Below are positions 28,900 through 46,771 of a stretch of 64,000 nt of DNA, in pieces. Position 1 is the first letter of the stretch. Every line of letters starts with the position of its first letter. Both the position numbers and the translations under genes were made by a program. The DNA lies in assembly GCF_003018255.1 (NCBI RefSeq), contig NZ_CP027440.1; one strand, written 5' to 3'. This stretch comes from Escherichia coli. GTDB taxonomy: Bacteria > Pseudomonadota > Gammaproteobacteria > Enterobacterales > Enterobacteriaceae. Under the pieces are notes generated by a model. It searched no databases. It was not told the origin of the DNA and saw only the letters and a program-made list of their open reading frames with translations.

Positions 28900-28929
28900 C
28901 TAGAGCTCTGGCTTTAGAAGGAGTTAACC

Positions 28930-29244: not shown

Positions 29245-29288
29245 CATTTCTAAAAAGAGGCCGGTGCTGCTACCGGTCTCAGCCCAGA

Positions 29289-30176
29289 TTAGCCATTCTT
29301 TCTTCCCGTTTTCAGTCCTCGATGGAAATCGTTAATTCGCTTAATGGTTTTAACCGCACGCTGCGGCACTGCGGAAGCTACCGACCAGACAATCATTTCC
29401 AGACACAACAATACCGTACCATGTAGCGGCGTTTTCCCTTTTTCATCCCCGCGCGGAACATGAATCACGATACTGGCGTCTTTGCTAAAACGTGAATCCA
29501 GCGCGTTTGTCAGCAAAATAACAGGGATCCCTAGCCGCCTCGCCTCACGAAGCGTTGTCAGCCCTTCCCGGTGCGCTGATTTTTGCGCCATCATGATCAG
29601 AACATCGCCACGTTGAAGCGCGATCAGTTGCTCGGCAAGGCCAATACCCGTACGGTTTAGTGCCGTGGCAGGCAAACCTATGCGGTTGAATAGTCGTGCG
29701 GTATAGTCCGCCAGAATACCCGAAGCGCCAATGCCAAAAATTGCGACTTGCCGTGCCTGCACCAACAACGCTACAGCTTGCGCAAGCGCGTGGCGGTTTT
29801 CAGGCTCTGACAGGACATTACAGGTATACAAATGCCCTTCAAGAACAAAGTCGATTGCGGTGTTAACATCGCTCGTCAAGTTACTCACCGTCGTAGACAT
29901 CTTTTCGCTGGAACTAAGGGCTGGACCAAGCCACTGTTCCAGAGTGCGTTTCAGATCACGCAGCCCGGCAAACCCCAGGGCCTGTATAGCCCTGATAACT
30001 GTGGCATCGGAAGTGTTCAACGTGGCCGCAATTTCCATCGCCGTTTGCTCGAGTACCACTTCACGATGCTCATTAATGTAGCTGGCGACAACTCTTAACC
30101 CAGGCGTTAACTGACTCGCGCGAGTGCGAAAACGCTCACCAAAAATATCAACCCGCACTTTATCTTTCTGGATCAT
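29289..30176 (-). CDS. RpiR/MurR-family transcriptional regulator (HTH_6 plus SIS domain), 295 aa
   Basis: N-terminal RpiR-type HTH (TSDATVIRAIQALGFAGLRDLK) and C-terminal SIS domain; the start ATG overlaps the stop of the upstream substrate-binding gene in an ATGA arrangement. Confidence 0.82.
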   Translation of the reverse strand: MIQKDKVRVDIFGERFRTRASQLTPGLRVVASYINEHREVVLEQTAMEIAATLNTSDATVIRAIQALGFAGLRDLKRTLEQWLGPALSSSEKMSTTVSNLTSDVNTAIDFVLEGHLYTCNVLSEPENRHALAQAVALLVQARQVAIFGIGASGILADYTARLFNRIGLPATALNRTGIGLAEQLIALQRGDVLIMMAQKSAHREGLTTLREARRLGIPVILLTNALDSRFSKDASIVIHVPRGDEKGKTPLHGTVLLCLEMIVWSVASAVPQRAVKTIKRINDFHRGLKTGRKNG

Positions 30177-31120
30177 TTAGCCTCCGGTAGAGGTCGCCCT
30201 GCAATTTGTGATTGTATCTGCGCAGCCATCAGCCCCAGAGATGCAAAGGAGTTAGAAATTGCCTCTTCACGAGAAATCAGCACATAACGCCCGGAACGAC
30301 AGGCAGTCAGAAACTGACACCATCCCGGCATGACTTTTTCCATTGCTGCCAGCTCATCCTGAGGTTTACCACCGGTGTCACCGCGCCAGGTTGCAAAAAC
30401 AAAATCGGCATCCAGTTCAGGTAAACGCTCCGCGCTCACATCCATTCGCCCACCTTCAGGAATGCTCTCAATCAGCGGCGGAAAACGAAAACCCGCATCG
30501 CGTAATACCCGCCCCAGCGAATGATAGCTATGCATCACATTAATTTTTCCCTGGTTTGCCTGAATCACCGATACCGTTATTTTTTGGCTGTCCAGCGTCG
30601 CCTTCAGCGCATTGATTTGTGCCTGATAGCGGCGTTCAAGTATCGCCAGCTGCGACTGCGTTCCTGTAAGTCCTGCCAGCTTGCGATAGATTTCTGGCGC
30701 ACCCCCTTTGAGATGATCAATGCTCACCGTGGGCGCAATTTTTTCAAGTTGTTCAATGGGCGTATTACGGGTCGGTTCTGTGATGATCAGGTCAGGCTTT
30801 GCCGCCACAATCGCTTCAATATCAATATCAGCGGTACCAATAAAGGCGATCGATGAATTATCAAAGTCGACACCTGTCAATAACGCGCCAGATCGAATGA
30901 AATGGCTACCGTCAGGCCGAGTTCGCCCGTGGCTGGCGACAGGAGGTACACCGAGCTCAATCAGAGGAATAGTGATATCAAGATCGTGTAAAGAGACAAT
31001 TCTCTTTGGATGAGCAGGAACAGTGACTTTGCGCCCTAAATCATCAGTAAATACCTGAACAGGTTCTGTTGCACGGGAAAAAAATGACAACAGTATCAGC
31101 AGAGAAAAAAATAAACGCAT
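30173..31120 (-). CDS. Periplasmic iron-siderophore/cobalamin-type ABC substrate-binding protein (FecB/FhuD-like), about 315 aa
   Basis: Start set at MRLFFSLLILLSFFSRA signal peptide with GGGAG Shine-Dalgarno (track ORF extends to 31183); class III binding-protein-like sequence; operon context with FecCD permeases. Confidence 0.82.
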   Translation of the reverse strand: MRLFFSLLILLSFFSRATEPVQVFTDDLGRKVTVPAHPKRIVSLHDLDITIPLIELGVPPVASHGRTRPDGSHFIRSGALLTGVDFDNSSIAFIGTADIDIEAIVAAKPDLIITEPTRNTPIEQLEKIAPTVSIDHLKGGAPEIYRKLAGLTGTQSQLAILERRYQAQINALKATLDSQKITVSVIQANQGKINVMHSYHSLGRVLRDAGFRFPPLIESIPEGGRMDVSAERLPELDADFVFATWRGDTGGKPQDELAAMEKVMPGWCQFLTACRSGRYVLISREEAISNSFASLGLMAAQIQSQIAGRPLPEAK

Positions 31121-31130
31121 ATAACTCCCG

Positions 31131-32180
31131 TTAAAAACTGTTCCTGCGCTGCCAGAGCAGTAGCAAAAAAAATGGTCCACCAATCAGTGAGATAATGATT
31201 CCGGCAGGCAGTTGCAAAGGCAAAAAAGCCAAACGACCAATGCTATCCGCCAGAATAACTAACAACGCCCCCGATACCGCGCTCCCCAGCAGTAATGTCG
31301 TCTGCCCGCCACGTAGAATAAAACGTGATATATGGGGTGCTATCAATCCGACAAAACCGATGTTACCAACACACGAAACGCAGACGGCTGTCAGGATTAT
31401 TGGTGCGGCGACACGTAACAACGCCAGACGAGAACTATTCACCCCTAACCCGGTTGCAACCTGATGACCAAGCAGAGCGATATCCGCCGTCCTGGCGGTG
31501 AACAGCAATAAAAGAGCGGCTGGCAACATCCAACAGGCTGAAATACCGACTAACATCCAGTTAGCTGCATGCAGGCTTCCCGATAACCACATCAATGCAG
31601 TTTGTACATCTCGAACATCTGCAGTGGTCATAAATACACCGATACCGGCGGCGAAAAACCAGGAAACACCAATACCAATCAGAACAAATCGCGGGCGGGA
31701 AATATCGCGCGCACAAAAAATCACGATTAAAGCCACCAACAAGCCACCAGCAAGACCAGCCACTGGACGCCAGAACATTCCCAGCATTGGAAACTGGAAA
31801 ATCAGCCACAGCACCGCCACGCTACATCCTTCTTTGACGCCGATTAAACCAGGATCGGCAAGGCCGTTACGCGCAATGGATTGCATCGCGGCCCCCGCCA
31901 TACCTAACATGGCTCCGCATAGCAATGCCATGATGACTCTCGGCAAGCGAATATCCTGCACAATATAACGTGCGTCTGTGCTTACGTTTTCTGGAGCAAA
32001 CAACGCTCGTCCTACTTCCGATGCCGGGACAGAAAAAGAACCCTGCATCAGACCGAATATCAGTATTCCAACCGCAAACAGAAACAGCCCACCAAGCAAC
32101 AGCAGATTTTTAGGGCGTACCAGTGTCGAAAACTTACCAACACGTAGTGGGCGTAGCCCGACGTTCATTATCCGACTCAT
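31131..32180 (-). CDS. FecCD-family ABC permease (349 aa)
   Basis: Polytopic membrane protein; FecCD/BtuC-type sequence; start overlaps the upstream permease stop. Confidence 0.85.
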   Translation of the reverse strand: MSRIMNVGLRPLRVGKFSTLVRPKNLLLLGGLFLFAVGILIFGLMQGSFSVPASEVGRALFAPENVSTDARYIVQDIRLPRVIMALLCGAMLGMAGAAMQSIARNGLADPGLIGVKEGCSVAVLWLIFQFPMLGMFWRPVAGLAGGLLVALIVIFCARDISRPRFVLIGIGVSWFFAAGIGVFMTTADVRDVQTALMWLSGSLHAANWMLVGISACWMLPAALLLLFTARTADIALLGHQVATGLGVNSSRLALLRVAAPIILTAVCVSCVGNIGFVGLIAPHISRFILRGGQTTLLLGSAVSGALLVILADSIGRLAFLPLQLPAGIIISLIGGPFFLLLLWQRRNSF

Positions 32181-33160
32181 TTGAACATCCTCGTCGCCAT
32201 AATGACAAAAACAGGCGCACCAACTAACGCCGTCATGACACCGGTCGCTAACTCATGGGGCGTGAAAAGCGTCCGGGCAATAATATCTGCCAGTAATAAC
32301 AAAAGTGCGCCGACACAAGCTGAAAGAGGGAGCAGAACGCGCAGATCCGCTGATACCAGACGCCGGACAATCTGCGGTACCAACAGGCCGACAAAACCAA
32401 TGGGGCCAGCAATCGATACGGCTGCGCCACAGAGCAACGCGATCGCAAGCAGGGTAAATGTTCGCGTGCGGAGTACAGAGACGCCCAGCCCCTGCGCCAT
32501 GCGATCGCCCAGTGCCAACATGTTAAGGTAGGGTGCAAGGTAAAGGGCTAACACAAATCCCCCCAGAGAAAACCAGGCGGACGTACCCAGCGTCGCCCAA
32601 TCCTGCCCCGCTAAATCACCTGCTAGCCATGTCCGCATCGCCAGCAGTGTTTGTTCGTCAAGAATCAGGATTGCAGCCGTTATTGAGGACACGAACGCCG
32701 ATAGCGCCACGCCGCATAAAGTAACTTTCATTGGCGTTACCCCTGAACGCCCTGCGGAGGAAAGCAGCAATATCAACAGGAACAATAACGCGCCCCCCGT
32801 AGATGCCAGCAGTGGGCGTCCAACCGGAAAGGCCAGTCCAAGCGCACTGGCGGCAACGACAGCAAGAGCGGCTCCGGCATTTAAGCCTAAAATATGTGGC
32901 TCCCCCAATGGGTTACGAATGACAGCCTGCAACAAAGCACCAGCAACACCAAGAGAAGCACCGGTAAGCAATGCTGCCGCTAAACGCGGCAAACGGAGTC
33001 TTACAATTACGTTGTGATCGAAGTTTTGCGGATCAAAATGAAGAAATGCCTGCAACACCGTTTGTGGTGCAATAAATCGGGCACCAATCCCTGGATATAC
33101 CACGCATCCCACCAGCAGTAAGGCGAGGAAAATTACAGTAACCAGCCCTGTGCGCATCAT
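32177..33160 (-). CDS. FecCD-family ABC permease (327 aa)
   Basis: Polytopic membrane protein paralogous to the adjacent permease; start overlaps the ATPase stop. Confidence 0.85.
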   Translation of the reverse strand: MMRTGLVTVIFLALLLVGCVVYPGIGARFIAPQTVLQAFLHFDPQNFDHNVIVRLRLPRLAAALLTGASLGVAGALLQAVIRNPLGEPHILGLNAGAALAVVAASALGLAFPVGRPLLASTGGALLFLLILLLSSAGRSGVTPMKVTLCGVALSAFVSSITAAILILDEQTLLAMRTWLAGDLAGQDWATLGTSAWFSLGGFVLALYLAPYLNMLALGDRMAQGLGVSVLRTRTFTLLAIALLCGAAVSIAGPIGFVGLLVPQIVRRLVSADLRVLLPLSACVGALLLLLADIIARTLFTPHELATGVMTALVGAPVFVIMATRMFK

Positions 33161-33966
33161 ACTTTTTCTACACCACGAAACGGCATGAAGAACGGCTTTC
33201 CCGTCAGAGGATTTATTGATGCGTGAACATCAACGTCAAAGACAGCTTTTACCAGCTCAGGCGTGCAATGCTCCCCCTCATTCAACACACGCACCACTTT
33301 CCCCTGGCGTAAAAATATCAACGTATCGCCATAATTGACGGCAAAATTCAGATCATGCAACACCACGACGACTGTACGCCCGTGATGACGCGTTAAATCA
33401 TGTAATAACTCAAGAATTTCAACCTGATAACGTAAATCAAGCCAGGTTGTGGGTTCATCCAGCAGGATATAAGGCGTCTTTTGCGCCAACACCATCGCAA
33501 TCCAGCAACGCTGGCGCTGCCCACCAGAGAGTTTTTCAACAGGTAAATGTGCAAACTCCTGCGTACCGGTTAATTTCAGGGCCTCTTCCACCGCCTGCTC
33601 ATCGGCGTCGCTCCATTGACGTATGAAATTTTGCCAGGGAAAACGCCCACGCGACACCAGTTCATAAACGGTTAAGCCCTCCGGCAATAATGGCGACTGC
33701 GGCAAGATCCCAAGTCTACGGGATAACGCTTTCGTTGGTTGCTCGTGAATCGCTTTGCCATCAAGCAATATCGAACCGCCCATAGGTTGCAAGATACGTG
33801 CAATGGTGCTGAGCAACGTCGACTTTCCACAGCCGTTTGCCCCAACCAGAACGGTCATTTTTTCTGTGGGAACGGAGAAAGAAACACCATCAACAATGAT
33901 CTTCTTGTGATACCCGGCAGAAACATTGTCGAGGATCAGCCCCTGCCCTTTTGCGTTATGTGCCAC
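33157..33966 (-). CDS. ABC transporter ATP-binding protein (FecE/FhuC-like), 269 aa
   Basis: Walker A GANGCGKST, ABC signature LSGGQRQR, Walker B ILLDEPT; GTG start. Confidence 0.88.
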   Translation of the reverse strand: MAHNAKGQGLILDNVSAGYHKKIIVDGVSFSVPTEKMTVLVGANGCGKSTLLSTIARILQPMGGSILLDGKAIHEQPTKALSRRLGILPQSPLLPEGLTVYELVSRGRFPWQNFIRQWSDADEQAVEEALKLTGTQEFAHLPVEKLSGGQRQRCWIAMVLAQKTPYILLDEPTTWLDLRYQVEILELLHDLTRHHGRTVVVVLHDLNFAVNYGDTLIFLRQGKVVRVLNEGEHCTPELVKAVFDVDVHASINPLTGKPFFMPFRGVEKV

Positions 33967-34220
33967 GTGTACGCCAACTTAATCAAAGACAAACAAAAAT
34001 AAAACTCATTCTCCTTTGAGAGTTTGACGCCACAAAATGTAGTAGTCAAGCAGTTAAAAGCCACACAAAAACAAGGTAAATAACAGGTAAAATATTTTTA
34101 TACATAAAAATAAAAACATTAAATATCAATAAATTAAAAGCAATCAAATTGTATAAGCCTTTCATAAAAACACATGTAGCAATTTTTTGTTATTTCTCAT
34201 TTACTACTACATTACTGCGT

Positions 34221-34240
34221 GATTGAATGATTCTCAATTA
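34221..34240 (+). promoter_or_regulatory. Putative Fur-box-like element upstream of the TonB-dependent receptor gene
   Basis: gattgaatgattctcaatta partially matches the Fur consensus, about 100 nt upstream of the receptor start within an AT-rich divergent promoter region; weak. Confidence 0.3.
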
Positions 34241-34339
34241 CATATCCGATGGCGAAATAACAAACGGATAGTGCTTAGTGAGCAATAAGAAACAATTTTC
34301 ACTCGCGACAATCCGCGAGTTTTTGGGATAACAGACTAA

Positions 34340-36481
34340 ATGGCTATGTTCACACCTTCATTCTCAGGACTCAAAGGTCGGGCGCTCTTTTCACTGCTTT
34401 TTGCGGCACCGATGATTCATGCAACAGACTCTGTAACGACCAAAGATGGCGAAACAATCACTGTTACAGCAGATGCAAATACCGCAACTGAGGCAACCGA
34501 TGGTTATCAACCTCTGAGCACCTCCACGGCGACATTAACCGATATGCCGATGCTGGATATCCCGCAGGTGGTCAATACGGTTAGCGATCAGGTTCTGGAA
34601 AACCAGAATGCGACGACGCTGGATGAGGCGCTTTATAACGTCAGTAACGTGGTACAGACCAATACATTAGGCGGGACTCAGGATGCTTTTGTACGCCGTG
34701 GGTTTGGCGCAAACCGGGATGGCTCCATCATGACCAACGGTCTGCGAACCGTACTTCCTCGCAGTTTCAACGCCGCCACAGAACGTGTGGAAGTGCTAAA
34801 AGGCCCGGCCTCCACGCTGTATGGCATTCTCGATCCTGGCGGACTGATTAACGTCGTGACCAAGCGCCCGGAAAAAACATTCCATGGTTCGGTTTCAGCC
34901 ACCTCCTCCAGTTTTGGTGGCGGCACTGGGCAACTTGATATCACAGGTCCCATTGAAGGCACTCAGCTGGCGTATCGCCTTACCGGGGAAGTGCAGGATG
35001 AAGATTACTGGCGAAACTTCGGTAAAGAGCGCAGTACATTTATTGCCCCGTCACTCACCTGGTTTGGTGATAATGCAACAGTAACCATGCTCTATTCCCA
35101 TCGGGACTATAAAACTCCGTTCGATCGTGGAACGATTTTCGACCTTACGACGAAACAGCCCGTAAACGTTGATCGAAAAATACGTTTTGACGAACCGTTT
35201 AATATTACAGATGGTCAGTCCGATCTGGCGCAACTCAACGCAGAATATCATCTCAATAGCCAGTGGACAGCGCGCTTTGATTACAGCTACAGCCAGGATA
35301 AATACAGCGATAATCAGGCGCGTGTTACCGCGTATGATGCAACGACAGGAACACTGACACGGCGTGTTGATGCAACTCAGGGATCTACCCAGCGTATGCA
35401 TGCTACTCGTGCGGATCTGCAAGGGAATGTTGATATTGCCGGATTCTATAATGAGATTCTGGGTGGGGTGTCATATGAATATTATGATCTTCTGCGTACA
35501 GATATGATTCGCTGTAAAAAAGCTAAAGATTTCAATATCTACAACCCTGTTTATGGTAATACCAGCAAATGTACAACGGTTTCGGCGTCGGACAGTGATC
35601 AGACGATCAAACAGGAGAGCTACTCAGCGTATGCACAGGACGCACTCTATCTGACCGATAACTGGATTGCCGTCGCCGGGATCCGCTATCAGTATTACAC
35701 GCAGTATGCGGGTAAAGGCCGTCCTTTTAATGTCAATACTGACAGCCGCGATGAACAATGGACTCCCAAACTGGGGTTGGTCTACAAACTGACGCCATCG
35801 GTATCCTTATTTGCCAATTATTCGCAAACATTTATGCCGCAGTCGTCAATTGCCAGCTACATTGGCGATCTTCCACCGGAATCATCTAATGCTTACGAAG
35901 TCGGGGCAAAATTCGAGCTATTCGATGGTATCACCGCAGATATTGCGCTGTTTGATATCCATAAACGTAATGTGTTGTATACCGAAAGTGTTGGTGATGA
36001 AACCATTGCCAAAACGGCAGGCCGTGTTCGTTCAAGAGGGGTAGAAGTCGACCTTGCGGGAGCATTAACTGAAAACATTAATATCATTGCCAGCTACGGC
36101 TATACCGATGCTAAGGTTCTGGAAGATCCTGATTATGCAGGTAAACCATTGCCGAATGTTCCTCGTCATACCGGTTCGCTATTCCTGACCTATGACATTC
36201 ATAACATGCCTGGCAATAACACACTGACGTTTGGCGGTGGTGGACATGGCGTAAGCCGTCGTTCGGCAACCAATGGGGCTGACTATTATCTGCCAGGCTA
36301 TTTTGTTGCCGATGCCTTCGCCGCATACAAAATGAAATTGCAGTATCCGGTCACACTGCAATTAAACGTCAAAAACCTGTTTGATAAAACGTATTACACC
36401 TCTTCCATCGCCACAAATAATCTGGGGAATCAGATTGGCGATCCGCGTGAAGTGCAATTCACGGTGAAAATGGAATTTTGA
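34340..36481 (+). CDS. TonB-dependent outer-membrane siderophore-type receptor (713 aa)
   Basis: Signal peptide, TonB-box-like ETITVTA, plug and barrel sequence blocks, C-terminal aromatic residue (..VKMEF); divergent from the ABC importer operon (arrangement resembles fit-type iron uptake loci; symbol not assigned). Confidence 0.9.
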   Translation: MAMFTPSFSGLKGRALFSLLFAAPMIHATDSVTTKDGETITVTADANTATEATDGYQPLSTSTATLTDMPMLDIPQVVNTVSDQVLENQNATTLDEALYNVSNVVQTNTLGGTQDAFVRRGFGANRDGSIMTNGLRTVLPRSFNAATERVEVLKGPASTLYGILDPGGLINVVTKRPEKTFHGSVSATSSSFGGGTGQLDITGPIEGTQLAYRLTGEVQDEDYWRNFGKERSTFIAPSLTWFGDNATVTMLYSHRDYKTPFDRGTIFDLTTKQPVNVDRKIRFDEPFNITDGQSDLAQLNAEYHLNSQWTARFDYSYSQDKYSDNQARVTAYDATTGTLTRRVDATQGSTQRMHATRADLQGNVDIAGFYNEILGGVSYEYYDLLRTDMIRCKKAKDFNIYNPVYGNTSKCTTVSASDSDQTIKQESYSAYAQDALYLTDNWIAVAGIRYQYYTQYAGKGRPFNVNTDSRDEQWTPKLGLVYKLTPSVSLFANYSQTFMPQSSIASYIGDLPPESSNAYEVGAKFELFDGITADIALFDIHKRNVLYTESVGDETIAKTAGRVRSRGVEVDLAGALTENINIIASYGYTDAKVLEDPDYAGKPLPNVPRHTGSLFLTYDIHNMPGNNTLTFGGGGHGVSRRSATNGADYYLPGYFVADAFAAYKMKLQYPVTLQLNVKNLFDKTYYTSSIATNNLGNQIGDPREVQFTVKMEF

Positions 36482-36483
36482 TC

Positions 36484-36509
36484 AAAAAAGCCCGGTATGT
36501 TTACCGGGC
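36484..36509. terminator. Bidirectional terminator between receptor gene and GPH symporter gene
   Basis: Seen in sequence: A-run, then gcccggta-tgtt-taccgggc hairpin (T-run on the minus strand). Confidence 0.5.
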
Positions 36510-36588
36510 TGAGACTGATGACAAACTCCAAATTGTCTGATGCGCTACGCCCATCAGATCTACCATAGAAATTCAATATATTAAATTT

Positions 36589-37920
36589 TCATATATTTTT
36601 AGGCTGTAAACACACCTTAATCTGTTCGTAATATTCATTATTAATCAGATAAAATCTCATGATGAGTCCGGTAATCAGGTTAAGTATCGCGGGAATGATC
36701 GTCATTAACAGGCAGATCCCCCACAACGCCTGTGGTGTTTGTTCTACGCCAGGTTGATAGTCCATAAACGCTAAAGCGATTCCGATAAACCCTCCCGCCA
36801 GTCCCATACCAAACTTTTGAAAAAAGAGAATCCCGCCAAATGCCAGTCCAGAAACACGTTGCCCCGTTTTCATTTCACCATAATCCACTGACTCAGCAAT
36901 GGATGCCCAATAAATGGGAAGCTGAATATCAGTCAGAAAGGTCACCACAATATAAAATGTAAAAGCTAACACTATAGAATTTGGTTGCACGAAATACATC
37001 GCACCACCCACCACGAACGCCAGTAATTGGGTATAACGAAATATTTTTATTTTGTCGTAGAGTCGAGTAAGCCAGGTGCAAGCGATCATAGCCAGAACAG
37101 AGGCGATCACGCCTGAAGTTAAAAACGGTGAAATTAAAGCATCCCCACCATTCAGGTAATATTTTGCATAATATGCAGCGACAGAGTTACGAATAATCCC
37201 GCCAAACATAATGATCGCAATTACAGCGCCCAAAATGAGCCATTGATCATTTTTGATCAGTAACCGAAACTGCGCGGCCATACCGAGACTGGGTTTTGGA
37301 TGGTAGATGCGCTCTCTCACGCTAAAAAAACAATACAGGCATAAACACGTTGCCAGAATTCCCATTGCCCCCATTGCTATTTGATAACCCAGTTGTACGT
37401 TATTCTTCCCAAGATACATTGCAGATAAAGGAACAATAATTGTTACGGCGAACATGGCAATTTTTGTCATAACAAAACGATAACCATTGGCGCTCAATCG
37501 CTCTTGTGGATCATCCGTGATAACGCTGATTAATGAAACATAAGGAATAGCGATTAACGTATAGGTCAAGGTAAGTAACACATAGGTAGCCCAAGCCCAT
37601 AAAAGCTTAACTGAATAATCGGTATTAGGTGTGGTGAACATCAACCAAATGCTTATCCCAAACGGTATTGACATAAAAAGCAACCACGGCCGATATTTTC
37701 CCCAACGTGTATTCGTTCTGTCTGTCATTGTTCCCACAACTGGATCAATCACAGCATCAAGGATACGTACAGAAAATAACAGAATACCTAAGTCGACGGG
37801 TTTCAGACCAAATACATCCGTGTAAAAATAAGTGATGATCATGGCCAAAGACATCATTACTATCGCGATAGCCATATCACCAGCACCAAAACCTATCTTT
37901 TCATTTATTGTAAGTTTCAT
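36589..37920 (-). CDS. MFS/GPH-family glycoside-pentoside-hexuronide:cation symporter (about 443 aa)
   Basis: 12-TM-like hydrophobic profile with MelB/GPH-like N-terminal region (GFGAGDMA, DxxxDPxxG-like DAVIDPVVGTMTDR); start set at the ATG for MKLTINEK. Confidence 0.8.
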   Translation of the reverse strand: MKLTINEKIGFGAGDMAIAIVMMSLAMIITYFYTDVFGLKPVDLGILLFSVRILDAVIDPVVGTMTDRTNTRWGKYRPWLLFMSIPFGISIWLMFTTPNTDYSVKLLWAWATYVLLTLTYTLIAIPYVSLISVITDDPQERLSANGYRFVMTKIAMFAVTIIVPLSAMYLGKNNVQLGYQIAMGAMGILATCLCLYCFFSVRERIYHPKPSLGMAAQFRLLIKNDQWLILGAVIAIIMFGGIIRNSVAAYYAKYYLNGGDALISPFLTSGVIASVLAMIACTWLTRLYDKIKIFRYTQLLAFVVGGAMYFVQPNSIVLAFTFYIVVTFLTDIQLPIYWASIAESVDYGEMKTGQRVSGLAFGGILFFQKFGMGLAGGFIGIALAFMDYQPGVEQTPQALWGICLLMTIIPAILNLITGLIMRFYLINNEYYEQIKVCLQPKNI

Positions 37921-38206
37921 ACACAGCACTCATTGATTACGTGAACTTATATTAAAAACAAATATATCTGAACTCATTCAGCACATAACTTTACGAGTGA
38001 GCATAAATGCATTGGTTGATACCACAACAAACCATTGAGTCAATATTGAGCAACATCACATAAAAACCAATTTCACTTAATCTCATGATTTATATATTTA
38101 ATTGTGGTTTTTTCTGTTTTATGTCACAGATAGTGAACAAGCACCATGCGTAATAAAAGTTAAAGAATGTAGAGTTGGTATCAACCACTTGAAATGAGGC
38201 TTTGTC

Positions 38207-38959
38207 ATGATAAAAATTTATAAAGCCAGTAAAGGTCAGCTAAAGCATCGTGAAATCTTTGATGAAATAAAGAAAAAAGTAGATAACGGTGAATGGAAAG
38301 AAGGCAAAGCCATACCGACAGAAAGGGAATTGTCAGAATATTATTTAAGTAGCAGAACAACTATTCGAAAGGCAATAGAAAGTCTTAAACAACGCGGCTA
38401 CCTGCATAGTGTCCACGGGCAAGGAACATTTGTATTGCCTTCTCGTAGTAGAGAAAATCATTTATTGCATAGTTTTACCGACGATATTAAAGCTCGAGGT
38501 GGTATACCAGCACAGAATATTCTTGAGATAGGCTATGTTCCTGTCAGTGATGTTATCAGAAAAAATCTCGACCTGGATATCCATATCCAAACCGTATTCT
38601 GTATAAAACGCGTTCGCTATATGGGAAGTACCCCCCTGGGTATTCAGACATCATGGCTTGCATTAAATGACAGGCAAGAAATAACCCAAGAAGATCTGCT
38701 GGCGACGGGTTCGCTCTATATTTTACTGGAAGAAAAACTCGCTATTAAACCTTTAGAAGCAACAGAAATTATCTCTGCCCGGCTTCCCTCGCCCCTTGAG
38801 CGTCAATTACTGGAACTGACTGCCGATGATGTCGTATTAAGTTGTACCCGCGTCACGTTATCCGTGGAACGCAAACCAATGGAGTATGTAGAGATGGTGT
38901 ATCCCGCAAGCCGGTACTCCTACAAAGCACGAATTACAAAAGACAGTTTTAGCGTGTAA
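38207..38959 (+). CDS. GntR/HutC-family transcriptional regulator with UTRA effector domain (250 aa)
   Basis: N-terminal GntR winged HTH (PTERELSEYYLSSRTTIRKAIESL) and a C-terminal domain of UTRA length. Confidence 0.85.
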   Translation: MIKIYKASKGQLKHREIFDEIKKKVDNGEWKEGKAIPTERELSEYYLSSRTTIRKAIESLKQRGYLHSVHGQGTFVLPSRSRENHLLHSFTDDIKARGGIPAQNILEIGYVPVSDVIRKNLDLDIHIQTVFCIKRVRYMGSTPLGIQTSWLALNDRQEITQEDLLATGSLYILLEEKLAIKPLEATEIISARLPSPLERQLLELTADDVVLSCTRVTLSVERKPMEYVEMVYPASRYSYKARITKDSFSV

Positions 38960-38972
38960 CAGAGAGAATATT

Positions 38973-40049
38973 GTGAACAAAATAGAACAAGCTGTAATTT
39001 ATAACAAAATATTAGGTTCTTTAGCCTGCGCAGGTATGGGCGATGCATTAGGCGCAGCGACTGAACTCTACAGCATTGATGAAATAAAAGCTCAATGGGG
39101 AGGTTTTTTAAATGCCTTTGTTTCTCCTCCTGCCGATACATTCGCTGGCTCATTAAATGGTATTGCGGGACTTATCACCGACGATTCCAGCCAAATGTAT
39201 GTGTTTTCAGAAGGGTTAATTGAGGCTGGATTTGATAACTTCACCAATAATGACTGGTTAGCTTGTCTTCTGCGTTGGGCCGATATGCAGCCCTACGCAA
39301 ATTATAAAGGCCCCACAACAGAACAAATCGTCAAGGCACTAAAAGAAGGTAGACCAACAAACACCATTGGGCGTATTGGAACATCTTCTCGTCAGGCACC
39401 CAATGTCGGCACCACGAATGGAGCAGGAATGCGTGTAGCCCCTGCAGGATTGATCTGGCCAGGCAAGAAAGAAAAAGCGTGTCACCTGGCGCTAATAACT
39501 TGCCTACCTTCGCATGACACCAATATTGCGATTGCCAGCGCTTGCGCCATCGCTGCGGCGACATCACAAGCTATGTTACCAGAAGCTTCGCTCACATCAT
39601 TACTGGACGCCGCAATCTGGGGAGCGAATTACGGCGAACGCCTGGCCAAACAATATGCACGATGTGTCGCAGGGCCATCTATCGCCATGCGCATCCAACT
39701 TGCAGCGGACATCGCCAGACGAGCCAATGACCTGGAGTCTTGTCTGCGAGAAATGGAAGGTTTGGTTGGTAACTCTGTTGCCGCCCATGAATCCATTCCT
39801 GCGGCAATCGGTCTATTGCTGTACTGCAAAGGAGAACCCTGGGAAACCATTCATGCCTGCGCCAATATTGGCAATGACACCGATAGCATCGCTACGATGG
39901 CAGGCGCAATTGCAGGGGCATGGCGCGGTTTTGATGCGCTCCCTGAAGATAAATATGCCTTTTTCCGCGCCGTAAATAATAAAGATTTCGATATTGAAGC
40001 GATCGCATCGGGTCTGACATTGCTTGCATTAGAGGCACAGGAGAAATAA
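38973..40049 (+). CDS. ADP-ribosylglycohydrolase (ARH/DraG) family protein (358 aa)
   Basis: N-terminal GSLACAGMGDALGAATE and C-terminal NIGNDTDSIATMAGAIAGAW blocks match the two conserved ARH-family metal-binding regions. Confidence 0.8.
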   Translation: MNKIEQAVIYNKILGSLACAGMGDALGAATELYSIDEIKAQWGGFLNAFVSPPADTFAGSLNGIAGLITDDSSQMYVFSEGLIEAGFDNFTNNDWLACLLRWADMQPYANYKGPTTEQIVKALKEGRPTNTIGRIGTSSRQAPNVGTTNGAGMRVAPAGLIWPGKKEKACHLALITCLPSHDTNIAIASACAIAAATSQAMLPEASLTSLLDAAIWGANYGERLAKQYARCVAGPSIAMRIQLAADIARRANDLESCLREMEGLVGNSVAAHESIPAAIGLLLYCKGEPWETIHACANIGNDTDSIATMAGAIAGAWRGFDALPEDKYAFFRAVNNKDFDIEAIASGLTLLALEAQEK

Positions 40050-41047
40050 TGAACATGCCAGCCCGTACTCCTGTTATGCCATTAGCGCAAACTCGTGAGG
40101 AGATAAATGCTACGGCGGCATCGTTACGCCATTTGGCAGCTATCTGGGGTGAATGTTTTTCTACTTTTCAGCTCGATAAACGTGCTGTTGAACGCGTCTG
40201 TATAGTGGGATCGGGCGACTCCTGGACGGTGGCACTATGTGCCGCCGCCTGGCTGGGGAAATACACACATCTGTTTTGTTACGCATTGCAAACGTGGGAT
40301 TTTCTTCAGACTGATTTAACCCGTTATCAGAAAGAAACGTTAATCATTATTCTCAGTGCAAGTGGCAGACCATCAATGACCGTTGACGCCCTCTGCCACG
40401 CAGTATGCTCAAACGCGCAAGTGCTGGGTGTGACGAATTGCCCTGGAACACCATTTTGCGCAATAACAGAAAACATGCTCTATACATGGGCGAATAAGCA
40501 GGGTATTCCAACGCAAAGTAGTAGCGTCACACTTTATGCCCTCCTGCGCTTAGCGCAAAAATTATGTCCAGGCTTAACACCACTGCAGATTGAAGATGAT
40601 TTGGAAGGGAAATTTAGCCAGATTAATCAGCACTGGCAGCAAAAGAAGCGCCATTTTTACCAACAAAAAGAGATAACGTTTCTTGGGAGTGGCTTAAGTT
40701 GGGGACTGGCAATATCGGGGAGCAATTTACTTTCTTGCGGCCCACAGATTCGTGCGACAGCCCTTCCACTGGAAGAATTTTATCATTCATTACGCTTACA
40801 TCAGGCTGGTGTCGGTCAGCATTATATTTTACTACCAGCCACATCCTGCGAGTCCCCATTTTACCTTGCAACCCAAAAAGCAATTGTTGAACAGGGAGCG
40901 ACAGCAGAATTAATCAGTTTTATACCTGACGCCAGTGAGTCCAACAATTTATTTCTGGTCATGCAGTGGTTATATGAAATGTGCTGGAATTTAAGTTGTG
41001 ATTATGTCGACGCAGGCGGGCAACGCGTTAGCCATAGGGAGAAATAA
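40049..41047 (+). CDS. Double-SIS-domain sugar-phosphate isomerase/deglycase-like protein (FrlB/AgaS-like), 332 aa
   Basis: Two SIS-like segments (VCIVGSGDSW...IIILSASGRPSMTVDA and ITFLGSGLSWGLA...); its start overlaps the ARH stop by 1 nt (TAATG). Confidence 0.72.
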   Translation: MNMPARTPVMPLAQTREEINATAASLRHLAAIWGECFSTFQLDKRAVERVCIVGSGDSWTVALCAAAWLGKYTHLFCYALQTWDFLQTDLTRYQKETLIIILSASGRPSMTVDALCHAVCSNAQVLGVTNCPGTPFCAITENMLYTWANKQGIPTQSSSVTLYALLRLAQKLCPGLTPLQIEDDLEGKFSQINQHWQQKKRHFYQQKEITFLGSGLSWGLAISGSNLLSCGPQIRATALPLEEFYHSLRLHQAGVGQHYILLPATSCESPFYLATQKAIVEQGATAELISFIPDASESNNLFLVMQWLYEMCWNLSCDYVDAGGQRVSHREK

Positions 41048-41051
41048 GACT

Positions 41052-41966
41052 ATGAAGAAATTTGATGTCGCCGCTTTAGGCAGTGGAAATATAGATATTT
41101 TTTTATCTATCCCGTCACTCCCCACTCGTGGCGGTAAAGTTGTCGGGACACGTCTGGGTGAACAAGCTGGCGGCACAGTCGCCAACAGTGCCTGTGCGAT
41201 GGGACAACTGGGTCTCAATGTGGTATCTGTTTCATGTGTGGGCAATGATCATTCAGCCTCGATCATTCTTGATGGATTTAAAAAATATCATGTAAATTGT
41301 GATTTCGTTCAGGTAATTCCGGAATTGATTGCCAATACCGCGATTATCTTTATTGATGAATTAGGTGAAAAAACGTTGGTTTACTCGCCTGGTAGTGATC
41401 ATGAGTGGGATAAAGAAAAAGCCCTGCAGGCAATTGCGCAAAGCCGTTATTTTTATACGATGCCAGCAGATATCGAGAAATTTCGTATGCTGGCCGAATA
41501 TTCCCGTAGCCAGATGACAAAAGTTGTCGTTGATATTGAGCCTCATATCATTGCAACACCTGAACACCTTGCCAGAATTTTACACCTTGCTGATATTGCG
41601 ATATTTAATTATGACGGTTTTATTCGTGGCTATGCAACAGAGCCAGATTTTACACTTCTGCATGATATACAAGACGAGTATCAACTTGACGCTGTCGTGG
41701 TTACGCTGGATGTTAGGGGAGTAATTGCAGTCAAAGGCAATGAGCAAGTAAAAATAGGTAGTTATACAATTCCCGTTATTGATACCACAGGCGCTGGAGA
41801 TACTTTTAATGGTGCATTTGTTTATAGCTTAATAAAAAATATGCCCTTAATTGAAGCACTAAAATTTGCTTCTGCCACAGCAGCAATAAATATTACTGCA
41901 TTAGGTGCCAGAGGTCATCTGCCGACACCATCGGAGGTTAATCTTTTTCTTTCACAACACGACTAA
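41052..41966 (+). CDS. PfkB-family carbohydrate kinase (ribokinase-like), about 304 aa
   Basis: PfkB signature DTTGAGDTFNGAF near the C-terminus and a glycine-rich N-terminal lid; start set at MKKFDVAALGSG, 5 nt after the SIS stop. Confidence 0.85.
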   Translation: MKKFDVAALGSGNIDIFLSIPSLPTRGGKVVGTRLGEQAGGTVANSACAMGQLGLNVVSVSCVGNDHSASIILDGFKKYHVNCDFVQVIPELIANTAIIFIDELGEKTLVYSPGSDHEWDKEKALQAIAQSRYFYTMPADIEKFRMLAEYSRSQMTKVVVDIEPHIIATPEHLARILHLADIAIFNYDGFIRGYATEPDFTLLHDIQDEYQLDAVVVTLDVRGVIAVKGNEQVKIGSYTIPVIDTTGAGDTFNGAFVYSLIKNMPLIEALKFASATAAINITALGARGHLPTPSEVNLFLSQHD

Positions 41967-41993
41967 AATCATATATATACAAAGGTAAATATC

Positions 41994-43118
41994 ATGAAAA
42001 TAAGATATGCCGCTATTTTTCTGGCATTACCGCTGTTATGCACAACAGCGCAGGCAAACAGTTTTCTTCATTATGCTGGGGAGTTTAACTTCCGGACGGG
42101 AGAAAAGCAGAACAATGTCACAATCGCGGGGCTATCAGCCATCACATTTGATGCAAAAAAAAATATTTTCTATGCTATTAACGATAGCAGAAACAATAAT
42201 AAAGAAGGAGATGCCAGTCTTTATACACTAAAAATACAGGTATCATCCAGGGGCATTGAGCAAGTGAATTTTCTCAACCAGCGTCCACTGCTTGATGCAA
42301 AACAGCAACCTTTCGTGACCAATACGGTGGATGCCGAAGGTCTGGCCCTGACACACAATGGTAAATCATTACTCTGGAGTTCGGAGTTAGGTGCTCCACT
42401 GCGTCTGAGCACTCTCGATGGCGTAATGGAGAAAGATTTTACGTCTTTATTTCCTGCTCGCTTTAATATTAGTTCTGACAAAGAGAGCAGCAATGGTATT
42501 CGCAGCGGCAACGCCTGGGAGGGCCTGACAGTTACACCAGATGGAAAATCACTTTTTATCGCCGTTGAAAGCAGCCTTAAACAGGATGGGCCTATTGCAA
42601 GTCCAATAAATTCAGGCACATCACGCTTACTGCAATTTTCTATAGATGCAGACGGTCGACCTTCAAAGCAATTGCATGAATATCTCTATATTACTGATCC
42701 TGTTCCGCAAGTGAGTAAGTTCGGTATTAATGATAATGGCGTATCCGAGGTCATGGCGCTGAATGATCACCAATTGTTGGTCATCGAACGTTCCGGCAGA
42801 AACGTCAGTGCTGGGTTCAATGACTGGGATTACTCTGTCAGAGTTTATATGGTCGATTTAACTGCTGCCAGCGATATCAAGAATATTGACAGTCTGCAAG
42901 ATTGGTCCAATAAATCCACGTTACAACCCGTCAGTAAAAAATTATTAATTGATTTTGCTGATTACACTTCCTCTGCGGATTGTATTGAAGGGGTAACCTT
43001 CGGTCCTCTGATTGATGGGCATACATCGTTAATATTTGTATCTGATAATAATTTCCAGCCCCATCAACAGACGAAATTTTATCTATTCATTGATAAGGAA
43101 AACAAACTTAAAATTTAA
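41994..43118 (+). CDS. Secreted beta-propeller phytase-like / esterase-like protein (374 aa) with signal peptide
   Basis: Signal peptide MKIRYAAIFLALPLLCTTAQA; repeated EGLxxTxDGKSLFIAxE and IEGVT blocks resembling beta-propeller phytase-like proteins; family assignment is tentative. Confidence 0.5.
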   Translation: MKIRYAAIFLALPLLCTTAQANSFLHYAGEFNFRTGEKQNNVTIAGLSAITFDAKKNIFYAINDSRNNNKEGDASLYTLKIQVSSRGIEQVNFLNQRPLLDAKQQPFVTNTVDAEGLALTHNGKSLLWSSELGAPLRLSTLDGVMEKDFTSLFPARFNISSDKESSNGIRSGNAWEGLTVTPDGKSLFIAVESSLKQDGPIASPINSGTSRLLQFSIDADGRPSKQLHEYLYITDPVPQVSKFGINDNGVSEVMALNDHQLLVIERSGRNVSAGFNDWDYSVRVYMVDLTAASDIKNIDSLQDWSNKSTLQPVSKKLLIDFADYTSSADCIEGVTFGPLIDGHTSLIFVSDNNFQPHQQTKFYLFIDKENKLKI

Positions 43119-43213
43119 AGTCAAACTATAGATACAAAAACATTCTAATACATGGAATCATCAGATGGTGTATTCGATCACCAAAAATATATTTTATTCT
43201 GAAAGGGAATATT

Positions 43214-43948
43214 ATGAATTCTTATCTTAAAATATCACTTGCAGGAATAACAATGTTATCCTGCCTGTCACCTACACTAGTCTGTGCAGAACAGCCGCAT
43301 GGATTTATTGATTATCGCCATGAGTATCTTGATGATACTCGCACCCACGCGGACCGCGTTGAATTTGGTACATTTTTTAGTAATGGTATCGGTTTGATGG
43401 GAGAATTACGCTATAACACCGATGAAGGTGATAAAGATAAGTGGGACCCCTCACAATTTGGCAATAACGGAACAGGATTATCTGTTGTTTACCGCTTTAA
43501 GCCGCTGGATGACAAAAAATTCTGGTTAGAACCCATGTTCTGGCTTGATACCACGCAATATTGGTCAACTTACGAATATGGTCTTTCTGCGGGTTATGAC
43601 TTCAGCAAAGAATGGAAAGTTTCAGGTCGGTTTCGTTATGACATGGATAAAGCCACCGATAAATCCAAAGGTTATGGCAACGATGATCGTAATAACCGCC
43701 GTTACGATGTGTGGATCGACTATCGACCACAAAAAACCAACTTCCAATATCAGTTAAACCTGGTCTATTACAATAATGGTTATTTAACCTGGAATGATGG
43801 CCATAAAAACTATACCGCATCATTTAAAGTAGGGTACAAAATGGGATCGTGGATACCCTATATGAGTATTGCGGATTATAAAGGTGTGGATAAAACATCA
43901 AGTAATCGCCAAATCCGCTGGCGCTGGGGTCTGACTTATACTTTCTAA
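43214..43948 (+). CDS. KdgM/NanC-family small outer-membrane porin (244 aa)
   Basis: Signal peptide, about 220-aa mature protein with alternating amphipathic beta-strand pattern rich in Y/W/R/D, C-terminal ...WGLTYTF aromatic terminus; resembles oligogalacturonate/sialic-acid-specific porins. Confidence 0.7.
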   Translation: MNSYLKISLAGITMLSCLSPTLVCAEQPHGFIDYRHEYLDDTRTHADRVEFGTFFSNGIGLMGELRYNTDEGDKDKWDPSQFGNNGTGLSVVYRFKPLDDKKFWLEPMFWLDTTQYWSTYEYGLSAGYDFSKEWKVSGRFRYDMDKATDKSKGYGNDDRNNRRYDVWIDYRPQKTNFQYQLNLVYYNNGYLTWNDGHKNYTASFKVGYKMGSWIPYMSIADYKGVDKTSSNRQIRWRWGLTYTF

Positions 43949-43961
43949 TCTGGAATAAAAA

Positions 43962-44831
43962 ATGAATAATAAATTTAAAATCATTCTCTGGATGATGCTC
44001 TCTGCTCTGCCTGCTTTATCTTACGCACAGGTAAAAAATATAGTTACTGGCGAATATAGTGCGGTCAGTAAAATTATCACAGAAAAGGAAACTCTCTATC
44101 CATCCGATAAGATATTATTGGTTTTTGACATTGATAACACGTTATTAACGAGTGGCACTCGCATTGGCGGTGATATCTGGTATCAATGGCAAACCGATAA
44201 ATTGCCTTTAAAGCCGGATGACTCGCAAAAAGTTCCTTGCCTGTATGAAAATACAATCAGTATGCTTTACGAACTTAGCCCTATGCAGCTTACCGAGCCA
44301 CAGTTACCGACAATGTTAAAACAGTGGCAACAAAAGCATACCGCTTTTGCTCTGACATCCCGTGCACCGGATACTCTCTTTCCGACATTGCGGGAATTAA
44401 AGCGAAACGGCATTGATTTTTCGTCTTCCGCACTCAGGAAGAAAGAGGATACTTTGCCACCCTTTGAAAAAGGGAAACTCAAACGGTCATGGCTGTACAG
44501 CCAGGGGGTATTTTTTTCTTCCGGGCAAGATAAAGGCGTAATTCTCGATTATATGCTGGATAAAATGGGGAACAAATATGACGCGATTGTTTTTATCGAT
44601 GACGGGCAAGCAAACATTCATGCGATGACGAAGATGTTCTCTAAGGATAAATGGTCCTCTACGGATTTTACCATTATTCACTATACCAGAGTGGAGGATG
44701 AGCTTATTAAACAACAAGGTGCAGTAATAACAACTGCACAAGCAGAAAAAATGGCTACGGACTGGAAAACTCTGGCTGGTTCGCTGGCAACACTATTTCC
44801 AGATCGTAATAAACTGTGCCCAATAAAATAA
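43962..44831 (+). CDS. Secreted HAD-superfamily hydrolase/phosphatase-like protein (289 aa)
   Basis: Signal peptide MNNKFKIILWMMLSALPALSYA; HAD motif I DxDxT (VFDIDNTLL) and later FIDDGQAN aspartate motif. Confidence 0.6.
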   Translation: MNNKFKIILWMMLSALPALSYAQVKNIVTGEYSAVSKIITEKETLYPSDKILLVFDIDNTLLTSGTRIGGDIWYQWQTDKLPLKPDDSQKVPCLYENTISMLYELSPMQLTEPQLPTMLKQWQQKHTAFALTSRAPDTLFPTLRELKRNGIDFSSSALRKKEDTLPPFEKGKLKRSWLYSQGVFFSSGQDKGVILDYMLDKMGNKYDAIVFIDDGQANIHAMTKMFSKDKWSSTDFTIIHYTRVEDELIKQQGAVITTAQAEKMATDWKTLAGSLATLFPDRNKLCPIK

Positions 44832-44839
44832 TCAACGAC

Positions 44840-44868
44840 AACCCGGCAAAACACATGTTTGCCGGGTT
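44840..44868. terminator. Hairpin between the island's last gene and parE
   Basis: Seen in sequence: aacccggcaaa-acacatg-tttgccgggtt, 11-bp perfect stem; no strong T-run. Confidence 0.4.
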
Positions 44869-44875
44869 AAGATTA

Positions 44876-46771
<1,896 letters not shown>

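Follow-up and report, generated by a model that had tools for sequence, protein, structure and literature searches.

The genes that lie between ygiN and parE in the Escherichia coli genome studied here, i.e. in a window of 64,000 nucleotides from contig NZ_CP027440.1 (assembly GCF_003018255.1), have their closest described counterparts in the fit iron-uptake operon of E. coli, in the ribose utilization systems (RUS) of Bacteroidetes and in the yegTUV-yegW cluster of E. coli K-12. The fit operon was reportedly described by Ouyang and Isaacson in 2006. It encodes an outer-membrane receptor (FitA), an ATPase (FitB), two permeases (FitC and FitD), a periplasmic binding protein (FitE) and FitR, a regulator with a helix-turn-helix (HTH) and a sugar-isomerase (SIS) domain, and a 347-bp intergenic fragment between fitA and fitB contains a bidirectional promoter that is bound by FitR, with repression exerted by FitR and Fur (PMC2593036). 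In a comparison of strain BEN2908 published in 2026, the operon is listed with a length of 7193 bp as ‘GR 22, ygiN..parE’ (PMC12928451). RUS are centred on a ribokinase and include variable nucleoside-cleaving enzymes, among them ADP-ribosylglycohydrolases and nucleoside hydrolases, and their proposed role is the release of ribose from nucleosides, cofactors and (poly)ADP-ribose (bioRxiv 10.1101/574913). The function of yegTUV was stated to be still unknown in a 2024 paper. Against this background, the explanation of our data that we favour, and consider reasonably probable as a whole, is that the ygiN–parE interval is a variable E. coli site that holds two unrelated and separately regulated uptake systems, the fit operon (module A) and a set of eight genes (module B).

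The block between the end of ygiN at 29244 and parE (44876-46768, minus strand) spans positions 29245-44875 (15,631 bp) and is embedded in the gene order hybA ... parC-ygiS-ygiV-ygiW-qseBC-ygiZ-(two extra genes)-mdaB-ygiN-[block]-parE-yqiA-cpdA-yqiB-nudF-tolC ... hldE. It contains 14 intact open reading frames, the lengths of which agree with the RefSeq annotation of E. coli JNE23-011, and this strain matches an 18.5-kb query across the block over its full length with 99.9% identity. In K-12 MG1655, parE follows ygiN after a spacer of only 47 bp, and none of the 14 genes is present. The initial annotation, which had been made from this DNA alone and had described an accessory block of two functional modules with mosaic composition, was thus correct about coordinates, gene number and gene content, as judged from open reading frames and RefSeq products, and also about the close neighbourhood of ygiN and parE in K-12.

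Module A (29289-36481, 7193 bp) and module B (36589-44831) differ clearly in composition. Module A has a GC content of 49.2% and module B one of 42.1%, compared with 51.0% for the window outside 26500-44875, which excludes a uniform composition; 1-kb windows outside the block have a mean GC of 0.508 with a standard deviation of 0.036. GC at third codon positions is 0.43-0.52 in the fit genes, 0.31-0.43 in module B and 0.49-0.63 in flanking core genes. The mosaic that had been proposed is therefore real, but low GC is not a feature of the symporter and secreted-protein genes alone, as had been stated: module B is AT-rich throughout, least so in the genes for its ADP-ribosylglycohydrolase-family (ARH; 48.6% GC) and SIS-domain (46.3% GC) proteins.

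No tRNA gene was found by ARAGORN in the 64-kb window, no integrase or transposase is annotated in the block or at its borders, and a search of 28900-45100 for direct repeats gave none at the borders or the internal junction, only chance-sized matches and the fitC/fitD paralogy; the borders are thus as bare as the initial annotation had described them. Every junction is a short spacer with a terminator-like hairpin (29257-29280, 36489-36510 and 44840-44868). Having neither mobility genes nor attachment sites, the block is not a classical integrase- or tRNA-associated island; of the softer hallmarks of islands, deviant composition and patchy distribution are both seen in module B, and fit shows patchiness only. 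As an island, the block is ordinary, i.e. a recombination-type variable site without mobility genes, half of which is a published iron operon, and its interest rests wholly on module B.

Module A is the published fit operon (fitR-E-D-C-B | fitA), already known and with no difference in kind, because gene types and order, the divergent promoter, the position between ygiN and parE and the span of 7193 bp all agree. On the minus strand, fitR (29289-30176) encodes an RpiR/MurR-type repressor with HTH and SIS domains and fitE (30173-31120) a periplasmic iron-siderophore binding protein, both recognized by RefSeq product and NCBIfam; they are followed by the genes for the two FecCD-family permeases, fitD (31131-32168) and fitC (32177-33160), which are paralogous to each other, and by fitB (33157-33966), which starts with GTG and encodes the ABC ATPase, these three being assigned by RefSeq product (roles of all five as in PMC2593036). 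The TonB-dependent siderophore receptor gene fitA (34340-36481, plus strand; 375.7 bits with TIGR01783 against a cutoff of 223.5) is separated from fitB by an AT-rich divergent promoter region of 373 bp (33967-34339), recognized from its sequence and from the published one (PMC2593036). The six-gene make-up, the order, the HTH–SIS regulator and the divergent transcription of fitA and fitB are those of the published description, and length and position are exactly those of fit in BEN2908 (PMC12928451). Thus, the siderophore-type uptake set with an RpiR regulator had been recognized correctly by content, but it is not new, as the operon is published and its site had already been listed as a variable region. 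An iron chelate would be taken up across the outer membrane by FitA in a TonB-dependent manner, bound by FitE in the periplasm and imported via FitC/FitD with FitB as the ATPase, with expression presumably under the published repression by Fur and the RpiR-type FitR. A search for the 19-bp Fur consensus with up to three mismatches gave no match, a result that is compatible with the presence as well as the absence of a degenerate Fur box.

Among 5426 complete E. coli genomes, fit is present in 1870 and module B in 408 (with at least 80% of the module in 404 of these), and 121 carry both, counted as genomes in which one place matches the 18.5-kb query over 80% or more of its length. Subtraction gives approximately 1749 genomes with fit only, 287 with module B only and approximately 3269 (60%) with an empty site as in K-12; the block is thus accessory and patchily distributed, in line with what had been proposed. 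All four states of the site therefore occur, and the two modules are distinct not only in function but also in composition and history. One example of each state was inspected: K-12 (empty), E2348/69 (fit-only), the swine strain U90 (B-only) and JNE23-011 (fit+B); O157:H7 genomes show 55% coverage of the query in the same pattern as E2348/69. By identity, module B falls into two classes, with at least 99% in 121 genomes and 95-99% in 287 genomes, and these counts, equal to those of the fit+B and B-only states, suggest a restriction of the combined form to a single lineage. Some records in the plasmid collection (H96, H102, H103 and H107) have lengths of 1-5.4 Mb and resemble whole or fragmented chromosomes entered as plasmids, and the lone ‘plasmid’ match of fit among the E. 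coli records may be likewise misfiled. Fit matches in Klebsiella ‘plasmids’ look like chromosomal segments or mislabelled records with the operon in a different context and were not used as evidence for plasmid carriage.

How did these states arise? Sequence comparison makes it probable that the presence of fit at this site predates the diversification of E. coli, with a deletion in K-12-like genomes, because fit is syntenic in both Enterobacter and a cryptic Escherichia clade, with core-like divergence, host-tracking GC and, in the latter, the same junctions. An Enterobacter contig has the order qseBC-mdaB-ygiN-(BON/LysM gene)-fitR-E-D-C-B | fitA-parE-yqiA-cpdA-yqiB-nudF-tolC; the sources of its FitA, which is 90% identical to FitA in our window, name Enterobacter kobei, a member of the Enterobacter cloacae complex. 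The Fit proteins of Enterobacter and the window are 72-90% identical and the flanking core proteins 70-96%, and the GC content of fit DNA, 59% in Enterobacter and 49% here, tracks that of each host. Escherichia sp. E1130, of the cryptic clade, is fit-only, with junctions as in fit-only E. coli; its flanks are only 89-95% identical to the window, which places it outside E. coli proper. At the left junction, the ygiN/fitR spacer (29245-29288) carries a bidirectional terminator hairpin (29257-29280), and junction comparison shows that the first ~25-30 bp past the ygiN stop codon, CATTYCTRAAAAGAGGCCGGTGCTG, are common to fit-only, B-only and fit+B genomes as well as to E1130, and are not found in K-12. 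In the spacer of K-12, the fitA terminator stem (GCCCGG/CCGGGC) is retained along with 9 of the next 13 bases, and this possible terminator remnant is weakly consistent with a loss of fit.

Two details of these relatives may be added. The extra BON/LysM-domain gene between ygiN and fitR in Enterobacter (4484-4924 in L053) has no counterpart in E. coli. In E1130 (locus L059), the fit genes are 96-98% identical to those of the window, with 89% for qseC, 91% for cpdA and 93% for parE, which could reflect either stronger constraint on fit or exchange between clades.

The best-surviving alternative to an ancestral fit is the one implied by the initial annotation, which spoke of fourteen inserted genes and stepwise acquisition: the site would have been empty as in K-12, both modules would be foreign and the fit+B state the end product. 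The large share of empty genomes, the different GC of the modules and the occurrence of each module alone all speak for it. This alternative is nevertheless unlikely, because it has to account for an operon that is syntenic in another genus and in the cryptic clade, diverges like the core, has host-like GC and is bordered by the same junctions; moreover, B-only genomes retain the 25-30 bp that normally adjoin fitR, which indicates loss of fit rather than an independent insertion, and the K-12 spacer resembles the fitA terminator. The proposed polarity is thus most likely wrong for the iron module, as judged from the synteny in E1130 and Enterobacter, and only module B looks acquired. This also means that the common inference ‘present in pathogens, not in K-12, hence acquired’ is probably backwards for fit, which affects the use of fit as a marker of extraintestinal and avian pathogenic E. 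coli.

Module B, by its composition and the company it keeps elsewhere, looks to have been acquired horizontally from a donor with lower GC. Its GC content is approximately 9 points below that of the rest of the window, and it also falls below that of its flanks in Enterobacter sp. BIGb0383 (48.5% versus 58%) and in L047, a metagenomic Enterobacteriaceae contig (49.6% versus 54-56%); in Providencia it is at host level (38%). A relative in Yersinia frederiksenii lies on a mobilizable (MOBP) plasmid of 254 kb between IS3 and IS6 elements, other relatives adjoin conjugation genes of the type found in integrative and conjugative elements, and the one in Vibrio adjoins Tn7-like transposon genes. 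A scan of 100,044 species-representative genomes for the ARH gene with two exact peptide patterns, which may miss some carriers, found 34 loci but no carrier among the other species of Escherichia, and the protein cluster at 90% identity carries E. coli names only among the members listed. All eight genes are present in the same order in L047, with 85% identity for the ARH protein and 69-74% at the DNA level, in the arrangement AraC | module B | TRAP transporter | parE; the parE neighbourhood has therefore been used in another taxon, too.

The junctions of module B allow a tentative order of events. On the right side (44832-44875), a terminator hairpin (44840-44868) is followed by GATTATCA, which leads into the parE stop codon; this junction is identical in the fit+B and B-only states as represented by U90, i.e. 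the terminator of the DUF2608 gene at the end of the module followed by AAGATTATCA, and this identity suggests a single insertion event. A comparison to fit-only genomes shows that module B stands in place of 23 bp in the stretch from the fitA terminator to parE. The junction between modules A and B (36482-36588), which exists only in the fit+B configuration, consists of the fitA terminator hairpin (36489-36510) and a single palindrome that resembles repetitive extragenic palindromic elements (36534-36563, TGTCTGATGCGCTACGCCCATCAGATCTAC). The breakpoints of B-only genomes are located in the loop of the ygiN-side hairpin and within the last eight codons of the symporter gene that opens module B. 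The most parsimonious path from these sequences would lead from an ancestral fit-only state by insertion of module B between the fitA terminator and parE to fit+B, and from there by loss of fit to B-only genomes, with a deletion of fit having led separately from the fit-only to the empty, K-12-like state. Between the window and U90, module B differs by 0.7-2.3% (97.7-99.3% identity) and the core flanks by 2.3-3.5% (96.5-97.7% identity).

The 3' end of the symporter gene deserves separate mention. The fit+B allele (36589-36615) ends with VCLQPKNI and the B-only allele (1989-2015 in L002) with ARLQTAEE, with the stop codon at the same position; as these last eight codons are wholly different, a recombination breakpoint lies inside the 3' end of the gene. 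An attempt to use this C-terminus as a test of which allele is ancestral was dropped, as the C-termini of orthologues are too variable.

The eight genes of module B are arranged in two divergent units. On the minus strand is a gene for a cation symporter of the GPH (glycoside-pentoside-hexuronide) family (36589-37920; 348 bits with TIGR00792 against a cutoff of 231). On the plus strand follow genes for a regulator of the GntR/HutC subfamily with a UTRA effector domain (38207-38959; model matches, with PF00392 and PF07702 in orthologues), an ARH-family enzyme (PF03747; 38973-40049), a SIS-domain protein resembling the two-SIS GlmS-isomerase/NagB-II/FrlB class by profile search (40049-41047), a PfkB-family kinase closest to ribokinase by model matches (41052-41966), a secreted Phytase-like (PF13449) β-propeller with the signal peptide MKIRYAAIFLALPLLCTTAQA (41994-43118), a KdgM-family outer-membrane porin (43214-43948; PF06178 in orthologues) and a secreted HAD-superfamily protein (DUF2608; 43962-44831) whose DxDxT motif reads FDIDNTL, the latter two with signal peptides apparent from their translations.

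The best models for the GntR-type regulator are HutC, PhnF and TreR, each with a score under the respective equivalog cutoff. In the divergent promoter region (37921-38206), two exact TGGT-N4-ACCA sites (38013-38024 and 38176-38187) stand in inverted orientation, a shape similar to that of the operators for DasR and other repressors of the HutC type. Six other loci (U90, L047, Enterobacter L044, Providencia L005, the Yersinia plasmid L050 and L049) likewise hold two of these sites at a distance of ~163-177 bp in the orthologous spacer, which contains one site in Vibrio L007 and none in Herbaspirillum L009. The GntR-type HTH, the UTRA domain and palindromic sites in its own promoter region thus characterize the protein as a HutC-subfamily regulator by sequence, with the operators being putative. 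A search of 26000-47000 with Rfam at E<=1 gave no riboswitch or small RNA, only a spurious match to a plant microRNA.

The ARH protein matches PF03747 over its full length (residues 15-326, 4.5e-49). In this family, the motifs GDALG..TE, TDD and DTDS provide the catalytic glutamate and the metal-binding sites. Alignments to MJ1187 and ARH3 show that the protein encoded here retains GDALG..TE, TDD, NGAxMRVAP and GxDTDSIA, and E31, T69, D70, D71, D302, T303, D304 and S305 are invariant in 16 orthologues. Its best solved relative is MJ1187 (2.9e-33), with ARH3 at 4e-14, and it is located outside the characterized subfamilies, reaching 40.9 bits with the DraG model (cutoff 337) and 22 bits with that for Tri1 (cutoff 490). 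For the SIS protein, profiles match GlmS isomerase domains, SIS-type glucosamine-6-phosphate deaminases and a putative fructose-amino-acid-6-phosphate deglycase (1e-17 to 1e-24), and its motifs GSGDS, SASG and EE..H are invariant. The Phytase-like protein is predicted to be a β-propeller with high confidence (pLDDT 89.7), and its structural neighbours fix no activity; the DUF2608 protein is likely a periplasmic phosphatase, judged by its domain and signal peptide. None of the eight proteins has a match in PADLOC, and a role of the ARH gene in anti-phage defence, which had been considered, was rejected on these grounds.

Gene neighbourhoods in other taxa are most telling with respect to function. 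We surveyed 43 non-redundant loci around relatives of the ARH gene (42 of which gave an ARH match) and found a PfkB kinase in 36, an IU-nucleoside hydrolase in 27, a Phytase-like protein in 23 and a Bmp-type nucleoside-binding protein in 22; at least one nucleoside-type gene occurs in all 32 loci that are at least 15 kb long. The Providencia locus combines adenosine deaminase, GPH symporter and KdgM with GntR, ARH, SIS, PfkB, Phytase-like protein and a UshA-like 5'-nucleotidase, the Vibrio locus has 5'-nucleotidase, Phytase-like protein and KdgM together with Tsx, GntR, a Bmp-type ABC importer, ARH, SIS and PfkB, and the Herbaspirillum locus consists of a TonB receptor, GntR, Bmp-ABC, ARH, PfkB, IU-nucleoside hydrolase and Phytase-like protein. 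Enterobacter sp. BIGb0383 carries all eight genes plus Tsx. Further contigs add either a PNP/UDP-family phosphorylase with transketolase and transaldolase, or adenosine deaminase, and in some loci a nucleoside:H+ symporter is accompanied by three to six IU-nucleoside hydrolases. In the loci of Providencia, Yersinia, Kosakonia, Trabulsiella and Vibrio, the slot of the DUF2608 gene is taken by a UshA-like 5'-nucleotidase, and this shared position suggests that DUF2608, as a different enzyme, likewise serves to dephosphorylate nucleotides in the periplasm. The SIS gene is missing from the versions in Burkholderiales and from many orthologous clusters, in which ARH and PfkB persist. In a metagenome-assembled genome of an Erysipelotrichaceae bacterium from goat jejunum (L040, ~7900-13200), five tandem ARH-family paralogues are found beside a PfkB kinase and a Bmp-type binding protein, which looks like enzyme diversification for several substrates.

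Because the neighbours in other taxa are nucleoside genes, the kinase is ribokinase-like and the ARH motifs are kept, module B most likely serves to scavenge nucleoside- or ribose-containing compounds. The ‘carbohydrate-type catabolic set’ of the initial annotation, from the GPH symporter through the secreted HAD hydrolase, comprises exactly these genes but turns out to be too generic a term. Under our proposal, an anionic, phosphate-linked ribose or nucleoside compound would pass the KdgM-type porin, the secreted β-propeller and the HAD phosphatase would remove phosphoester groups in the periplasm, and the neutral product would be imported by the GPH symporter. In the cytoplasm, the ARH-family enzyme would cut the ribosyl bond, the ribokinase-like kinase would phosphorylate the sugar either before or after this cleavage, and the GlmS/FrlB-like SIS enzyme would convert the sugar phosphate for central metabolism. 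Until an intermediate builds up, the HutC-type repressor would block both divergent transcripts via the two TGGT-N4-ACCA operators. Candidate substrates in agreement with such a scheme are ADP-ribose or poly(ADP-ribose) fragments, ribosides derived from NAD, and nucleosides that are ribosylated; the combined action of a phosphodiesterase and a phosphatase on poly(ADP-ribose) yields ribosyl-adenosine. A more specific idea, which we put forward tentatively as possible but not probable, is that module B represents a widespread pathway with a catabolic glycohydrolase of the ARH fold, in which phosphodiester-linked ribosyl-nucleoside compounds, e.g. fragments of (poly)ADP-ribose, NAD-derived ribosides or ribosylated nucleosides from RNA, are dephosphorylated in the periplasm by the secreted β-propeller and a phosphatase, imported as neutral ribosides and cut by the ARH enzyme into ribose and adenosine or another nucleoside, to be fed into the pentose phosphate pathway.

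Several points weigh against the overall explanation, in which the enzymatic steps, the substrate and the succession of evolutionary events are all inferred. As to fit, the ancestry comparison drew on Enterobacter, E1130 and the E. coli states, and Klebsiella has a fit-like operon at another site; an ancient transfer between Escherichia and Enterobacter at the ygiN–parE site is thus possible. As to the order of events, fit+B before B-only is the most parsimonious, not a proven, sequence; the 121 fit+B genomes are equated with the 121 genomes having module B at 99% identity or more through equal counts only; and the divergence of module B, similar to that of the flanks, means either that its acquisition is old or that it travelled together with its flanks by homologous recombination. 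As to function, the SIS enzyme is hard to place, since its class normally acts on phosphates of amino or ketosamine sugars. Moreover, neither module B of E. coli nor its same-order counterpart in L047 includes an overtly nucleoside-specific gene, such that the nucleoside link rests on the orthologous loci of other taxa, and a literature search gave no paper or experiment that would tie module B to a substrate.

Alternative functions for module B have to be weighed against the same neighbourhoods. It could be a locus for plant or host glycosides or acidic oligosaccharides, which KdgM would admit, the β-propeller would attack as a glycosidase and the GPH symporter would import as pentosides or hexuronides. 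This is decidedly unlikely, as the β-propeller belongs to no glycoside hydrolase family recognizable by sequence (Pfam offers Phytase-like only), the conserved cytoplasmic trio consists of ARH, ribokinase-like kinase and SIS protein, the neighbours in other taxa are nucleoside genes rather than genes for sugar acids or pectin, and gammaproteobacterial versions always come with a 5'-nucleotidase or a HAD phosphatase. It could also be an Amadori pathway like frl or fra, with the kinase acting on a ketosamine and the SIS protein as deglycase under a GntR repressor. In the frl operon, a GntR repressor is indeed found together with a PfkB kinase and with a GlmS/FrlB-class SIS enzyme, and the profile matches and invariant motifs of the SIS protein described above fit this logic. 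Still, we regard this possibility as highly unlikely: scores with the curated models stay far below cutoff (19.2 bits versus 430 for FrlB and 45.3 versus 247 for FrlD), which also eliminates module B as a set of frl-type equivalogs, the SIS gene is missing in many orthologous clusters that keep ARH and PfkB, and the ARH enzyme, the porin, the secreted phosphatase and the nucleoside neighbours would be left unexplained. Finally, that the entire 15.6 kb arrived as a single island in one event and later decayed to single-module forms, as left and right junctions common to all occupied states might suggest, is scarcely credible given that its halves are 7 GC points apart, that fit alone is syntenic in other genera and the cryptic clade with module B found elsewhere at other sites or on mobile elements, and that, among the cluster members listed, module B at 90% identity or more goes under E. 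coli names only.

The window has two further variable spots. Between qseC and mdaB (26537-28068) are ygiZ (DUF2645), a gene for a hypothetical protein of 236 amino acids and one for an orphan Hcp/TssD tube protein of type VI secretion (TIGR03344, 197 bits), all with 33-35% GC; K-12 has only ygiZ, and U90 and E2348/69 have none of these genes, with mdaB directly adjoining qseC. The ygiZ product and the 236-amino-acid protein, neither of which has a match in NCBIfam or PADLOC, might be an effector/immunity pair. Between ygiC and ygiD (53438-56606) are genes for an aryl-sulfate sulfotransferase (assT), dsbL and dsbI, which we take to be the known arylsulfate sulfotransferase/DsbL-DsbI cluster of uropathogenic E. 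coli that is not known from K-12; an arylsulfotransferase gene also follows ygiC in Escherichia sp. E1130. In comparison to JNE23-011, dsbI (55935-56606) has a single-base deletion at ~56127 (CTACGCC-TGTTTG here versus CTACGCCATGTTTG), causing a frameshift after ~64 codons and an early stop, which makes it either a pseudogene in this strain or the product of a sequencing error.

If the more specific idea of an ARH-fold catabolic glycohydrolase in module B is true, approximately 7.5% of E. coli strains could reach a nutrient in the gut that is closed to K-12. The gene cluster, which pairs an ARH-fold enzyme and a ribokinase-like kinase with nucleoside genes, is conserved from Enterobacterales and Vibrio to Burkholderiales and Chloroflexi, and our literature search found no work on it. 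Identifying its substrate would give a metabolic role to many proteins now annotated as ‘ADP-ribosylglycohydrolase family protein’, and might also illuminate yegTUV of K-12 and define a strain-specific nutrient niche of E. coli.

Among known systems, frl for fructoselysine shares the SIS fold class with module B, but lacks the ARH enzyme, the porin and the secreted phosphatase. ARH3, DraG and MJ1187 have the PF03747 fold and motifs in common with the ARH protein of module B, yet the gene context of the latter is one of catabolism and not of protein de-modification. The nearest relative in E. coli itself is yegTUV-yegW (GgaR) of K-12, which also combines a GntR-family repressor, a sugar/nucleoside-type transporter, an ARH-family protein and a PfkB kinase. 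However, identities are low (32% between ARH and YegU, 22% between the kinase and YegV, and 26% between the regulator and YegW), yegT carries the annotation of a nucleoside permease and has been described as a symporter of the NHS family whereas the transporter of module B belongs to the GPH family, and the annotated yegTUV-yegW cluster is without the SIS enzyme, porin and secreted enzymes that module B has; by sequence, it is no orthologue but a distant paralogue at best. The nearest analogy is provided by the RUS of Bacteroidetes, in which a ribokinase-type kinase is likewise combined with an ARH enzyme. RUS are polysaccharide-utilization-type loci with SusC/D and with other regulators and transporters than module B, which has a GPH symporter and a HutC-type repressor next to its porin and periplasmic enzymes; the likeness between the two is taken here as an analogy rather than as homology of locus architecture.

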